DNA of 11,167 bases from Oculatellaceae cyanobacterium bins.114 (GTDB taxonomy: Bacteria > Cyanobacteriota > Cyanobacteriia > Elainellales > Elainellaceae), in contig JANRJA010000167.1 in NCBI GenBank assembly GCA_033764315.1, positions 1 through 11,167 on the forward strand. Reading direction: 5' to 3'. Under the pieces are notes generated by a model that was not told the origin of the DNA, did not search any database, and saw nothing but the letters and a program-made list of their open reading frames with translations. Made by a program: the position numbers and the translations under genes. Below are positions 3,126 through 11,167 of the stretch, in pieces. The first letter of the stretch is position 1. Each line of letters starts with the position of its first letter.

Positions 3126-3285
3126 AGATCAGCGATTAATCGGTATACAGGTTTACGTTTATCGAATGGGGTATTGAGTGGGGCGATCGCTCTGTTTCTG
3201 ATTTGCCTATAGGTTGAGAGCTTTAGAAGCCAGGAATTTAAATGGCAACAAACTTTGTAGATAGGGTTTGACGGCATCCAGAGTC

Positions 3286-4632
3286 ATGAAAAAAAGTAAA
3301 CAAGTTCGCCCGATTGCTACTTCTTTCTCTGTAAGAACTGCCGTTCTTTTAGGCATTCTCATTCTGCTAGTAGCTTGGCAAGTACCCAAATGGCAAACAT
3401 CAAATGTTGGACCCAGCAACAAAGATCAAGCGGATGTAGAAAATGCTTATCGACAAACCATACTGCAAGCGATCGGTGGACTCTTTTTCTTGGCTACTGC
3501 TTATCTCTCATGGAAAAACCTTCAAATTAGTGAGGATAAGCAAATTACGGAGCGTTTTAGTAAAGCCGTTGAGATGCTTGGAAATGAAGACTTGATTGAG
3601 GTTCGTCTAGGTGGCATCTATATTTTGTCACGCATTGCCAAAGACTCGCCTGAAGACCACTGGACAGTGATGGAAGTGTTAACTGCTTTTATTCGGGAGA
3701 GATCTGCAAGCCAGCGGCTTAAGGCAGAGGATGCAGCTGATCCTTCTCAGGAACCCGCGAGCGTCACTACAGATATTCAAGCAGCTATCAATGTCGTTGG
3801 GGAGAGAAATGTGAGCAACGACCCTAGAGGAAGACGTTTGGATCTCACTGAAGCTAACCTCGCTGGAGCTAATCTCAGCAACACCGACTTCACTGGAGCT
3901 AAACTCACTGGAGCTAATCTCAGCAACATCGACTTCACTGGAGCTAAACTCAACAATGCAGACCTCCACGTTGTTAATCTCAGAAATACCAACCTGACTG
4001 GGGCTGGACTCAACAATGCAAACCTCTGCTTTGCTAATCTCAGAAACACCAACCTGACTGGGGCTGAACTCAACAATGCAGACCTCTGCTTTGCTGATCT
4101 CGATAAGGTTGTTATTGATGAAAAAACGCAGTTGGATGCTAAATGGCGTTTAGTTTGGAGAGTTGTTAACGAAAGGGTTACTGGTGCCAACCTTGGTAAT
4201 GAGGATCTTAGTTGTGCCAACCTAACTGGAGTTAACCTCAGCAATGCTAACCTCGGTTACGCCAATCTCAGCAAAGCTATCCTTGACAGTGCTAACCTCA
4301 CTGAAGCCAATCTCAGTGGTGCTAACCTCGTTGATACTGACCTCAGGAGAAGTAACCTCACTGAAGTCATCCTTAACGGTGCTGACCTCACTGAAGCCGA
4401 TCTCCAAAACGCTATCCTGTGTAAAGCCGCCCTCAGTGGTGCCAACCTCACTTTCGCGTCTCTCGATGGTGCTAACCTCAATAAAGCCGACTTTAGTGGT
4501 GCTACTCTCAAATGGACTAGTTTCAGTAATGCTAAAAACTGGACAGATGAACAATTGGACACTGCCAAGCTTTGTAAAACTCAACTGCCAGAGGGGAGTA
4601 ATCTAGACCCAGATCGAGATTGTTCAAAATGA
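3286..4632 (+). CDS. Pentapeptide-repeat protein with N-terminal hydrophobic segments
   Basis: Two hydrophobic stretches, then the QITERFSKAVEMLG...VRLGGIYILSRIAKDS...VMEVLTAFIRE...DIQAAINVVGER block, then two A(N/D)Lxx repeat tracts separated by TQLDAKWRLVWRVVN. ATG 3286 preferred over TTG 3268. Confidence 0.92.
   Translation: MKKSKQVRPIATSFSVRTAVLLGILILLVAWQVPKWQTSNVGPSNKDQADVENAYRQTILQAIGGLFFLATAYLSWKNLQISEDKQITERFSKAVEMLGNEDLIEVRLGGIYILSRIAKDSPEDHWTVMEVLTAFIRERSASQRLKAEDAADPSQEPASVTTDIQAAINVVGERNVSNDPRGRRLDLTEANLAGANLSNTDFTGAKLTGANLSNIDFTGAKLNNADLHVVNLRNTNLTGAGLNNANLCFANLRNTNLTGAELNNADLCFADLDKVVIDEKTQLDAKWRLVWRVVNERVTGANLGNEDLSCANLTGVNLSNANLGYANLSKAILDSANLTEANLSGANLVDTDLRRSNLTEVILNGADLTEADLQNAILCKAALSGANLTFASLDGANLNKADFSGATLKWTSFSNAKNWTDEQLDTAKLCKTQLPEGSNLDPDRDCSK
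3863..4100 (+). repeat. Near-identical 45-bp and 60-bp tandem duplications inside the pentapeptide tract
   Basis: ctggagctaatctcagcaaca(c/t)cgacttcactggagctaaactca x2, then about 2.5 copies of aacaatgca(g/a)acctc...ctgactggggctg(g/a)actc. Confidence 0.85.
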
Positions 4633-7751: not shown

Positions 7752-8177
7752 TTACCCTAAGTTTGATCGTCCTTTGAGGTAGTCTGTCACCAGGTTTCTA
7801 AGCTCTACTAAGCCTGCTGTCAGTTGAGCGATCGCCTGCATATTGACTTCTTGTTGAGCCTCAATCCTTTCCATGCGTTCTGTGTGGCGTTGCGTTGCGG
7901 CTTCTTGTTCTGCCTGCCACTCTTCGTGTTCTGTGATGCGTCGTTCGTGTGCGGCTTGCCACTCGTTATGTCGGGCGATCGCGGCTTCCTGCTGTCTCTG
8001 CCACTCTTCGTGTTCTGCGATGCGCTGTTCGTGTCGGGCGACTCCTTCGGAGAGCGTTGCTAACGCCTCACTCTGATTGTCGTTGGTGCGCTCGTGCCGT
8101 AGGTTGGACGCTGCGATTTCGAGCATTAAGGCTTCGAGTCGAGCAATGCGGCTGTTGGTATCACTAGTTTGGGTCAC
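7752..8177 (-). CDS. Coiled-coil protein with internal repeats (141 aa from GTG 8177; TTG 8192 alternative)
   Basis: HEQRIAEHEEWQ / HERRITEHEEWQ; ctgccactcttcgtgttctg occurs at 7914 and 7998 (84-bp period); the GTG aligns with the conserved leader seen in neighbours. Confidence 0.8.
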   Translation of the reverse strand: MTQTSDTNSRIARLEALMLEIAASNLRHERTNDNQSEALATLSEGVARHEQRIAEHEEWQRQQEAAIARHNEWQAAHERRITEHEEWQAEQEAATQRHTERMERIEAQQEVNMQAIAQLTAGLVELRNLVTDYLKGRSNLG

Positions 8178-8243
8178 GGTTGTAAATCTCAAATCAAAAT
8201 GACAAATGAAAAAACGTAGGGACTAGCTTAGTAGCTAATCCCT
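8175..8243 (-). promoter_or_regulatory. Conserved leader: hairpin + U-tract + UUUGUCAU + GAGAUUUACAACC-GUG
   Basis: Stem 8218-8243 (its mismatch is a G-U pair only on the minus strand); atgacaaatg at 8199-8208. Confidence 0.7.
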
Positions 8244-9811: not shown

Positions 9812-10029
9812 TAGAACGACACCTCCTCAACGAACCAGTTACAACGAGCGGCAAAGTTGCTCTCTGACTCAAGCAGACACGGCAGATCAACTGAAGCCCT
9901 GAGCTTGCAATAGCTAGGAGCTTGAATCGAAATACCAAACAGCGACAACTCTCGCGCTGGCTGGAAGTGCTTGCACATTCCGCAGACTGGCTGAACTTGA
10001 ACTGAATCAATCTGTGAGAGACTAGACAT
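9811..10029 (-). CDS. Small Cys-rich (CxxC...C...C...C) putative metal-binding protein (72 aa)
   Basis: VCGMCKHF...YCKLR...PC...RCNWFVEEVSF; GAGG RBS inside the conserved leader. Confidence 0.7.
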   Translation of the reverse strand: MSSLSQIDSVQVQPVCGMCKHFQPARELSLFGISIQAPSYCKLRASVDLPCLLESESNFAARCNWFVEEVSF

Positions 10030-10106
10030 GTTGTGAACCTCATTCACGACAAATGGAAAAAACTAAAGCGATCGCCTCGTACACGCATATGCCGGGGCGA
10101 TCGCTT
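10027..10106 (-). promoter_or_regulatory. Conserved leader: hairpin built from two HIP1 sites + U-tract + UUUGUCGU + GAGGUUCACAAC-AUG
   Basis: aagcgatcgcctcg...cggggcgatcgctt stem 10066-10106; acgacaaatg at 10046-10055. Confidence 0.7.
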
Positions 10107-10157
10107 CTTTATTGCCATGAGCAGATTTGTAATGCGCCTGTGGCTCGGCGCGGTGAA

Positions 10158-10595
10158 CTATTTAATCGGGCAACTGCATAACCCTCTGGCGATCGCTTCA
10201 AACTCTGGTCTGATGCTTTTGCCCTCTAGCCAATCGGCGCAATATTCAGCGATCAACCATGCATCGAGAACGCTGTAAATCGGAACCAGTGACCCGTAGA
10301 AGTAGTTCACAATCTCGTCTCTGGTTGGGTGAGGCTGTGGCGTGTGGGCATGAGCTACCCCAAGATGCCTGCGGATCAACCTCATATAAATCGCCTTGGC
10401 GTTGGGGCTAATGGTGCAAAGCTTTGAATCGCTTAACCCTGGCTTGTACCGAATGACCAATTCCAATCGAGCGGCGATCGCAAACTGCAACTTACTCACT
10501 CGCTCGTAGTCGTAGTGCATCCCTCGGTAAAGGGTGAGGAATGCGAAGTGGTGGTAAGCGGCAGCAATGTCGAAGCGGTCGAAGTATGTAAACAC
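10158..10595 (-). CDS. Hypothetical protein (145 aa), phage-like YFDRFDI N-terminus
   Basis: GTG start with GAGG RBS in the conserved leader; YFDRFDIAAAYHHFA...ISPNAKAIYMRL. Confidence 0.75.
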   Translation of the reverse strand: MFTYFDRFDIAAAYHHFAFLTLYRGMHYDYERVSKLQFAIAARLELVIRYKPGLSDSKLCTISPNAKAIYMRLIRRHLGVAHAHTPQPHPTRDEIVNYFYGSLVPIYSVLDAWLIAEYCADWLEGKSIRPEFEAIARGLCSCPIK

Positions 10596-10650
10596 GATGT
10601 AAACCTCAAAAACGACAAACGAAAAAGCTGAGAGCCGAAGCCCTCAGCTA
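10593..10650 (-). promoter_or_regulatory. Conserved leader: UUCG hairpin + U-tract + UUUGUCGU + GAGGUUUACAUC-GUG
   Basis: Minus strand agctgagggc-ttcg-gctctcagct-ttttcgtttgtcgtttttgaggtttacatcgtg. Confidence 0.75.
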
Positions 10651-10668
10651 GAAACCGACTAAACGAAC

Positions 10669-11026
10669 TCACGCGCCAAACACCCAGAAGCCAGCACCAA
10701 CCGAGCGGAAACCCCAAGCAGGAACCCAAGTGGAACACGGAACCCAAACCACAACGGGCAACCGAAGCCCACAGGCAAAGGCAACCGAAGCCCACGAACC
10801 GGAACCCAACCCACAGAAGCAGCGAGAGGACAGGGGAGAAGGAGCCAACCCAACCGGACACGGCTGACCGGGGAACGAAACCAACACGCCACCAGCAGCA
10901 GCAAGAGCACGAACAAACCGAATGGAACGAGCGGCAAACGCCCCACGACCGGAACCCTCAACCCGGAAAACCTCAGCACCTGGCAACGCAGACCGCACTG
11001 ACGAGTCAACACCCCGCGCGTCACCG
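10669..11026 (-). pseudogene. 3' part of a SLOG/DprA(Smf)-like Rossmann-fold gene, interrupted by an IS
   Basis: GDARGVD, FAARSIRFV, VLVSFPG and GSGSWASVAFA match SLOG-superfamily motifs; the MKFHTENC start in the ORF track is IS-derived. Confidence 0.7.
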
Positions 11027-11167
11027 CAGCAATTCTCAGTATGGAATTTCAACTGGTGTTGGGTGGGATCTCCAACTCTAGACCTTCAAGCATAAAGGTG
11101 AGCAGATGATCCCAACTGTCGAAATACAGATAACGGGTCAAGGCTCGCAAGTCATCGAAGAAGGTCT
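11027..11167 (-). mobile_element. End of an insertion sequence (ISNCY-like), continues outside window
   Basis: Abrupt compositional change at 11027; terminus CAGCAATTCTCA; transposase-like C-terminus ends 22 bp inside. Confidence 0.7.
11049..11165 (-). CDS. Transposase C-terminus (partial)
   Basis: TFFDDLRALTRYLYFDSWDHLLTFMLEGLELEIPPNTS* resembles recalled C-termini of cyanobacterial ISNCY transposases. Confidence 0.7.
   Translation of the reverse strand, partial: TFFDDLRALTRYLYFDSWDHLLTFMLEGLELEIPPNTS

Follow-up and report, generated by a model that had tools for sequence, protein, structure and literature searches.

The window analysed here, an 11,167-nucleotide (nt) stretch that forms contig JANRJA010000167.1 of Oculatellaceae cyanobacterium bins.114 (assembly GCA_033764315.1), carries near its right end the 3' part of a gene for a DprA-like protein that is written almost without adenine. 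Homologues of this gene occur in plasmids and prophage-like elements, and across the family adenine is avoided in every codon position, apparently as a previously undescribed trait. We regard it as almost certain both that the tract is a gene and that the family is under selection against adenine. The cause of the avoidance is unproven; the explanation that we favour, and consider fairly probable, is that the exclusion of a base protects expression of the gene from attack directed at that base.

Between positions 10670 and 11026 (357 nt) the + strand of the window contains 133 C, 126 A, 89 G and only nine T (at 10731, 10865, 10923, 10958, 10973, 10981, 10999, 11006 and 11021), and its longest T-free run in the tract, 10732-10864, spans 133 nt. 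Both the nine T and the 133-nt run had been reported in an earlier note on this DNA, and recounting returned the same figures. The longest runs in the window that are free of another base measure 57 nt for A, 28 nt for C and 26 nt for G, and in 500 shuffles of the window the longest run free of any single base averaged 35 nt, with a maximum of 57. Given a T content of 29.6% outside the tract, the probability of nine or fewer T in 357 nt is 4e-41. Read in the - frame, 9 of 120 codons contain A: in seven of these (D, D, E, E, I, Q and T) the residue leaves no choice, and the remaining two, TCA (Ser) and CCA (Pro), are synonymous, exactly as the earlier note had counted. At four-fold degenerate sites the third base is A in 2 of 88 codons, compared with 32.6% of 936 codons in the other - strand open reading frames (ORFs). 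The coding strands of the other ORFs in the window hold 21-34% A, and the neighbours are indeed of ordinary composition, as had been claimed.

All three - frames and two of the + frames are open across the tract. Where the + strand lacks T, no stop codon is possible on either strand; the frames are open as a result of base exclusion, and openness alone is therefore no proof of a gene. A sensitive blastn search with 10100-11167 against plasmids located the tract in five cyanobacterial plasmids (L001-L005; two from Synechococcus elongatus, one from Microcystis aeruginosa and two from Nostoc), each with a T-poor tract (328-582 nt) that is oriented as in the window. The six homologous tracts align without gaps over blocks of 204 and 70 columns. 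When sorted by codon phase, invariant columns number 4 of 68 versus 43 of 68 and 40 of 68 in the longer block, and 1 of 24 versus 11 of 23 and 10 of 23 in the shorter one. The - frame is open and conserved in all six tracts, and the + frame is interrupted by stops in three of them. On this pattern of third-base variation the tract is read as a protein-coding gene on the - strand, where the earlier note had also placed it.

The contrary reading, namely that stop-free frames have simply arisen from low-complexity non-coding DNA, can draw on the five open frames, on the lack of a Pfam match to the window's frames, and on the RefSeq annotation of the five plasmids, which at the gene's place has no coding sequence (CDS) in two, a CDS on the opposite strand in two and the correct one in a single plasmid. 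It is already contradicted by the period-3 conservation in a single conserved frame and by further evidence presented below: 645 homologous proteins and 733 homologous clusters, a confident predicted fold, and homologues of ordinary composition that share the motifs and match Pfam DprA. We give it practically no weight. A non-coding repeat or RNA was likewise rejected, being ruled out by the period-3 conservation; Rfam shows no relevant match in 10000-11167, and its single weak match (E 0.55) lies elsewhere in the window. A disordered protein encoded by the + strand was also discarded, since no start codon is possible in the tract and the frame has stops in three of the six homologues.

The window retains the 3' ~120 codons of the gene (10672..11031, - strand), as delimited by period-3 conservation, the conserved frame and the full-length ORFs of the five plasmids, together with its TGA stop codon (10669..10671, - strand). 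About 20 nt past the stop, a feature resembling an intrinsic terminator (10616..10649, - strand) consists of a ten-pair hairpin with a TTCG loop (10649-10626) followed by a run of T; it comes from a consensus scan of the region that gave 3 sites versus 2.3 expected. At the other end, family homology stops at an approximate junction (11027..11048), bounded by the departure of the alignment after 11026 and by a transposase stop at 11049. Beyond the junction lies the 3' end of an ISNCY-family transposase gene (11049..11167, - strand, by tblastn), comprising the last 38 codons and the stop and continuing past the edge of the window. Its ORF (11049-11165) shows 81.6% identity over 38 aa to an ISNCY transposase of Nostoc punctiforme PCC 73102 (E 5e-13, tblastn against plasmids), and seven plasmid records match this transposase end. 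The suggestion that an insertion sequence had cut off the 5' part of the gene is thereby borne out. The window's frame enters the family alignment near G-x-A-x-G-V-D, and the N-terminal ~45-50 codons, with the GFSGSR motif, are missing, lost through the ISNCY insertion. The copy is nearest to the Microcystis versions (64-66% identity over 116 aa; 66% to the plasmid copy, L002), and it ends in ...GFWVFGA, without the C-terminal QLSLF motif of the Nostoc-type proteins. Interrupted and devoid of this clamp motif, it is probably inactive.

A genome scan, with one genome per species, yielded at least 600 matched stretches, and 74 loci were confirmed. In 62 of the 74 the matched coding strand contains at most 8% A, and in 25 at most 2%; in the flanks of the loci the mean of A and T is 13-34%. 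The earlier note had named a normal A content of the homologues as a refuting result; most of them are poor in A, and the finding is supported. The loci are labelled Cyanobacteriota, Acidobacteriota, Rhodothermota, Bacteroidota, Pseudomonadota (Competibacteraceae), Thermodesulfobacteriota, Chlorobiota, Ignavibacteriota and Abditibacteriota. Many of them are contigs of metagenome-assembled genomes (MAGs), and identical or near-identical contigs have been placed in MAGs of different genera or phyla (L022/L023, L024/L025 and L074/L076); some host labels of these mobile contigs are consequently doubtful.

Examination of the family's codons shows A in the third base of 3.0% of four-fold degenerate codons (7317 codons, 59 genes), as against 23.1% in the flanking ORFs (39,529 codons, 330 ORFs), with T at 40% and G at 33% of these positions. 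A occurs in 771 of 9620 aligned codons. Apart from the stop codon it persists mainly in two columns, where it is nearly constant: 60 of 60 sequences have it at the Asp of G-V-D, and 41 of 43 have it at the Gln of QLSLF. A median of 92% of the residues belong to the ten amino acids that can be encoded without A (F, L, S, C, W, P, R, V, A and G), and the proposal that the constraint shapes amino-acid choice as well as codon choice is upheld. The avoidance reaches the ends of the gene: in 20 of 59 genes the start codon is GTG or TTG, an ATG start being absent within 40 codons of the first motif, and the stop codons of 64 genes are TAG in 49, TAA in eight and TGA in seven. The A-poor zone opens 30-45 nt before the first motif, approximately at the start codon, and closes 30-45 nt past the stop. 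Since adenine is excluded from all codon positions, from starts and from spacers, selection acts on the nucleotide rather than on the protein. In a quick tree of 70 rows, which left out four loci (L019, L071, L078 and L079) and is of a kind that unequal composition can distort, the ten rows of ordinary composition are scattered and five state changes are needed, at least two of them forced by well-supported branches. On this scatter, most lineages maintain the avoidance, and it has been lost or gained more than once.

The family is large. A word-based protein search returned 645 proteins at E<=1e-3 among 2205 candidates; among the matches listed, 120 of 120 lack a Pfam domain, and any names given are "hypothetical". 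A full profile search recovered 733 clusters (50% identity) at E<=1e-3, 554 of them at E<=1e-10. Full-length relatives measure ~165-190 aa (~178) and consist of one predicted Rossmann domain with the motifs GFSGSR, VGCAxGVD and GSGSW. An AlphaFold (AF2) model of the family, built from a 42-row alignment, has a pLDDT of 92.6 and a pTM of 0.89. The two most probable Foldseek matches of this model are DprA of H. pylori (4ljk_D; probability 0.93, TMq 0.49, E 0.077) and the DprA-like ShosA (8zva; probability 0.89, TMq 0.45), the E-values of the top matches being weak (0.05-0.08) and no structure matching at E<=0.001. Sequence comparison of the A-free members with Pfam gives no match even at E<=10, and the same is true of the window's own frames; the window's copy matches nothing in PHROGs or PADLOC, the whole window matches no plasmid by megablast, and the family profile matches no PDB chain by sequence. 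A homologue of ordinary composition, P0140, matches Pfam DNA_processg_A with 31.3 bits (E 1.4e-7; cut-off 29.6) and the PADLOC ShosA profile at E 1e-6. Five of 48 scanned homologues match DNA_processg_A, P0140 alone above the cut-off and the other four below it. Because ordinary-composition homologues reach the DprA profile, the family is accepted as DprA/SLOG-like, a likeness that the earlier note had read from the motifs. The core of canonical DprA is flanked by an N-terminal SAM-like and a C-terminal winged-helix-like domain. Neither has a counterpart in this family of single-domain proteins (~170-190 aa), which we therefore class as "DprA/SLOG-like, Rossmann domain only", without accepting it into canonical DprA. 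Among its members, 35 longer (fused) forms were found, none with a Pfam domain, and protein databases contain 300-550-aa "proteins" that also lack one. The longer forms are presumed to be read-through of stop-free, A-free DNA.

Many full-length members end in QLSLF, a sequence that fits the QL[SD]LF-type consensus of peptides binding the beta sliding clamp. A complex model of a full-length relative with DnaN of Synechocystis scored 0.65, versus 0.01 for the best of three controls, and passed a mark reached by 116 of 157 solved complexes and by 2 of 215 mismatched pairs. The model runs agree in at least 93% of contacts, the pLDDT of the partner is at least 85, and the modelled interface is formed by partner residues 171-179, the C-terminal QLSLF. 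The model supports binding of the sliding clamp by QLSLF in full-length relatives; as clamp-peptide complexes have already been solved, its pass may reflect mere likeness to them.

The genomic setting of the family is most readily seen in the five plasmids, where the gene heads an array encoding ArdA, a zincin-like (ArdC-type) peptidase, SSB, ERF, DUF4326 and a YspA-type SLOG protein, with an ArdA or zincin-like gene downstream in four of the five. On plasmid pSYSX of Synechocystis PCC 6803 the gene (NC_005232.1 23270-23833) precedes ArdA, Gp157 and a Rad52/Rad22-family gene. A Pfam scan of 137 flanking ORFs from 12 loci found ArdA, DdrB, Gp157 and tyrosine integrases at two loci each, ERF, YqaJ and DUF3799 at one each, and, as phage neighbours, two large terminases, a portal, a capsid and a scaffold protein; it found no relaxase or type IV secretion (T4SS) domain and no reverse transcriptase. 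In view of the ArdA, ERF, Rad52-type and phage genes, the setting is read as the module for early recombination and anti-restriction that plasmids and prophage-like elements carry. A tblastn search with the relative P0001 matched 19 plasmids, all cyanobacterial and all non-mobilizable by MOB typing, but not one among 50,697 phage records. Upstream of the pSYSX copy there is a TATAAT box, at a distance of ~45 nt, and no single-stranded-DNA (ssDNA) promoter hairpin of the Frpo-like kind (z 0.31). A conjugative leading region is not established as the setting: neither a relaxase nor an ssDNA-promoter hairpin was found, oriT not having been searched for, and several relatives stand beside terminase, portal and capsid genes. 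Two loci carry a second, divergent A-free DprA-like copy (L009:9854-10408 and L026:11429-12038, both on the - strand), ~45% identical to P0001 and located ~4 kb from the first copy on the opposite strand.

Exclusion of a base is not confined to the DprA-like gene. Neighbouring genes in some loci exclude A or C too, and in them the base in question survives in essential codons alone. A second A-free family of ~115 aa, with the motif VRPSxRSFSxW...VSVP, lies near the DprA-like gene or shares its stop-free frame. It was located on the - strand at L010:10381-10725, L007:10215-10559 and L011:9331-9678, and also at L012:3469-3807, L061:4347-4667, L042:5626-5961, L049:5620-5958 and L068:5593-5934, the last three being those that share the frame of the DprA-like gene. 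Its model (pLDDT 74) is a generic alpha-beta-beta-alpha-beta-beta unit, for which neither the PDB (best match the PulL C-terminal domain, E 0.03) nor the ESM Atlas gave a significant or usable match. In Competibacteraceae A-free genes occur as consecutive pairs, in blocks of 1.0-1.35 kb. The block at L055 5381-6479 (1.1 kb) contains only two A: the first gene has one in its TAG stop, and the second gene, whose GTG start lies two bases past that stop, has one in an Asp codon. Low-A blocks of 1.0-1.4 kb are also present in L047, L050, L056, L057 and L069.

A C-poor gene adjoins the A-free gene on pSYSX, at L027 (Synechocystis salina) and at L009 (a Nostoc MAG). This nearly C-free gene occupies L080:6089-6553 (pSYSX, NC_005232.1 22487-22951), L027:5188-5652 and L009:10502-10977; the L027 copy contains two C over its 465 nt, each of them part of a His codon in an HxD...H pattern. 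Its nine homologous clusters encode proteins nearly without P, T, A and Q, one homologue is named AlkB by its source, and Pfam gives only weak cupin/2OG-oxygenase matches. The gene is 43% A and 75% A+T, whereas C makes up 24-33% of the A-free gene. Of 81 loci, 7 show a low-C or low-G tract. Base exclusion thus spans several gene families, two bases and many bacterial lineages. A broader proposition, which we put forward tentatively and rate below an even chance, is that the A-free DprA-like gene, the second A-free gene and the C-free AlkB-like gene are "lipogram" genes of bacterial mobile elements, each written without one nucleotide so as to be expressible while immunity attacks that base in DNA or RNA, for instance when toxins of DarT2 or DarT1 type ADP-ribosylate T or G in the template. 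Counter-defence of this general kind would be written in base composition and not in a protein.

According to the explanation that we favour, base exclusion would make the expression of one gene refractory to an agent acting on that base. More specifically, and with considerably less confidence, we suggest that the strand that matters is the thymine-free template, which would escape a DarT2-type attack on thymine. DarT2 is the leading candidate on account of one homologue, P0128 (320 aa), in which a DarG-type macrodomain (PADLOC DarG, E 3e-73; PDB 5m31, E 1e-49; Pfam Macro, E 3e-22) is fused N-terminal to the DprA-like domain; the backing that this singleton gives to the DarT2 idea of the earlier note is circumstantial. 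In DNA, DarT2 modifies thymidine and DarT1 guanosine (PMC11543638), and the excluded A and C correspond in the template to T and G, the very bases that DarT2 and DarT1 modify. Phages carry orphan antitoxin-like enzymes against DarTG1 (PMC11825919). Under T-directed damage the element would still make an ssDNA-handling protein, a DprA-like recombination mediator, and with its QLSLF tail in the clamp cleft, as modelled, the protein could help replication past damaged DNA or the repair of such DNA.

Several observations weigh against this explanation. An A in the mRNA is a T in the template at the same position, and the sequence therefore cannot separate a DNA-level from an RNA-level cause. P0128 is a singleton among the best 150 of the 733 clusters and is itself of ordinary composition, and no macrodomain was found in the window's copy or in P0001, P0140, P0189, P0239 and P0219. 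DarT acts on ssDNA, yet many relatives look like prophages, which would enter as duplex, and the pSYSX copy has an ordinary TATAAT box in place of an ssDNA-promoter hairpin. The non-template strand, which is exposed in the transcription bubble, is T-rich (35-40%). The C-free partner is weakly cupin/2OG-like and does not resemble NADAR, the known guanine-ADP-ribose hydrolase. Twelve of the 74 homologous loci exceed 8% A (L020, L030, L032, L037, L061, L063, L065, L066, L067, L074, L076 and L078), and neither the window's copy nor its closest relatives have the clamp motif.

The strongest rival, which we consider rather unlikely, moves the protection from the template to the message: an A-free transcript would escape adenine-dependent effectors (toxin RNases, RelE/HigB-type nucleases, A-specific CRISPR-associated RNases or A-directed mRNA ADP-ribosyltransferases) and would still be translated while other messages are destroyed. 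The A-poor zone does coincide with the transcription unit or CDS, and the GTG/TTG starts (20 of 59 genes) and one-A stops (TAG or TGA in 56 of 64 genes, TAA in eight) fit this reading, which is moreover independent of the mode of DNA entry and so suits the mixed plasmid and prophage contexts. Engineered ACA-less mRNAs resist MazF, the term itself occurring in PMC5408214, and a reported cytidine ADP-ribosylation (PMC12945103) could parallel the C-free gene. On the other hand, no tested link to an RNase or RNA-modifying system exists, the one informative fusion, with the DarG macrodomain, points to DNA, and the A-free mRNA is predicted to be highly structured (-88 to -168 versus -50 to -102 kcal/mol per 300 nt in control regions), which does not obviously suit it to rapid translation. 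A further candidate, an unstructured single-stranded template, was rejected, as the T-free strand in 14 loci folds about as shuffles and control regions do. Independence from nucleotide pools is improbable in our view. Here an A- or C-free transcript would be made despite depleted ATP or CTP or a chain-terminating analogue, and both the different excluded bases in different genes and the constraint over the whole transcribed unit would be explained; ATP-degrading effectors and viperin-type ddhCTP are known defences. However, A is still present in the 5' leaders and a few codons, translation itself needs ATP, and we know of no ATP analogue of the chain-terminating kind. The C-free gene being rich in A (43%) and the A-free gene containing C (24-33%), each would also fail under the depletion that the other withstands.

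Avoidance of DNA sites, a slighter prospect still, would have the A-free strand bar A/T-containing palindromes and Type I sites, so that the DNA entering a cell first is shielded until ArdA is made. ArdA does lie downstream in many relatives, and 6-mer palindromes are depleted across the elements (ratio 0.70). The restriction-site argument of the earlier note nevertheless gains no specific support from the GC-only 6-mer palindromes, which can still occur in an A-free strand and are equally depleted in the gene (0.45) and the flanks (0.47). In addition, one cut elsewhere still kills the element, the adjoining promoter has A and T on both strands, site avoidance needs no ban on a whole base, and it leaves a C-free gene of 75% A+T unexplained. 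Least probable among these causes, and very much so, is a functionless footprint of an adenine-specific mutator (a diversity-generating retroelement or a deaminase of the non-template strand) that erased every tolerated A. Such a one-way ratchet would leave A only at invariant residues, as is seen, and the loss of the trait in scattered lineages is in keeping with it. The 137 flanking ORFs of 12 loci contain no reverse transcriptase, however; the trait is held in loci labelled nine phyla with sharp, gene-sized borders, four-fold sites went from A to T (40%) as well as to G (33%), a separate gene excludes C, and the GTG/TTG starts and A-free intergenic spacers look selected. We infer the following order of causes: template immunity, then mRNA immunity, nucleotide-pool independence, site avoidance and mutational footprint.

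Comparison with known systems sets the family apart in several respects. Like DprA/Smf (PF02481, SLOG) and ShosA of ShosTA, it has a predicted Rossmann-type core with glycine-rich motifs and is tied to incoming or replicating DNA; unlike them it comprises the central domain only, many members have what is, by modelling, a clamp-binding-type C-terminus, and the near-total exclusion of adenine is a feature of the family and not a DprA trait. The DprA of H. pylori is reported to ease the restriction barrier (PMC3597690). As with early anti-defence genes in leading regions and the first-expressed genes of phages, the family gene heads arrays of ArdA, SSB/DdrB and ERF/Rad52-type genes. Leading-region anti-defence genes are placed and oriented for earliest expression (PMC11541004); unlike these, the family shows no relaxase or Frpo-like hairpin, oriT not having been searched for, and 19 of 19 plasmids are non-mobilizable. 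The accessible part of PMC11541004, on anti-defence leading regions, contains neither "DprA" nor "cyanobacteri", and that of PMC13478746, on leading-region composition, does not contain "adenine". In ACA-less mRNAs and in restriction-site avoidance the protection likewise resides in the sequence and not in a protein, but there a motif of 3-8 nt is dropped, whereas the family drops a whole nucleotide and is forced into a ten-letter amino-acid alphabet. One homologue resembles the orphan counter-defences against DarTG (phage NADAR, DarG2-like) in having a DarG-type macrodomain; typical members have none, and the DprA-like domain is not predicted to act as a hydrolase. By comparison with these systems, a template that evades a toxin by its composition would be a new idea. 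In the full-text literature, subscription journals not covered, nothing was found on natural adenine-, cytosine-, guanine- or thymine-free genes, nor any study of the pSYSX gene (with ArdA, DprA).

In the remainder of the window, the next ORF downstream (10158..10595, - strand, 145 aa) is of ordinary composition, has no family match and no match in Pfam, PHROGs or PADLOC, and is the first of a leftward array (10595->4668) that contains only HTH proteins and unknowns. By Pfam scan, neither ArdA nor another known anti-defence gene was found in the window. Within the array, an ORF of 146 aa at 7752-8192 (- strand) has only 12.9% T in its coding strand; rich in E, Q, A, R and H, with a repeated H-E-E-W-Q / A-R-H motif, it shows a T skew that looks driven by amino acids and not by base exclusion. 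Beyond the array lie a 454-aa pentapeptide-repeat protein (3268-4632, + strand) and a NACHT NTPase (1-2955, - strand) that has an NNH2 domain at its N-terminus and HEAT repeats at its C-terminus, runs off the left end of the window and resembles a STAND-type defence protein (PADLOC HEAT-type matches).

The avoidance has consequences for annotation and for the study of proteins. The A-free spelling leads annotation pipelines to miss these genes or to place them on the wrong strand, and stop-free DNA probably yields false long ORFs in protein databases. As a natural example of selection on nucleotides prevailing over the choice of amino acids the family is extreme and, if the predicted fold is right, would provide as a by-product a well-folded natural Rossmann-fold protein made from about ten amino acids. 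The presence of the gene on pSYSX of Synechocystis PCC 6803 makes the question of cause directly testable. If the favoured explanation is true, it would reveal a further level of conflict between hosts and mobile elements, on which a gene is shielded by its spelling, and it would offer a simple signature for first-line counter-defence genes, together with a hint at the base that the host's weapon attacks.

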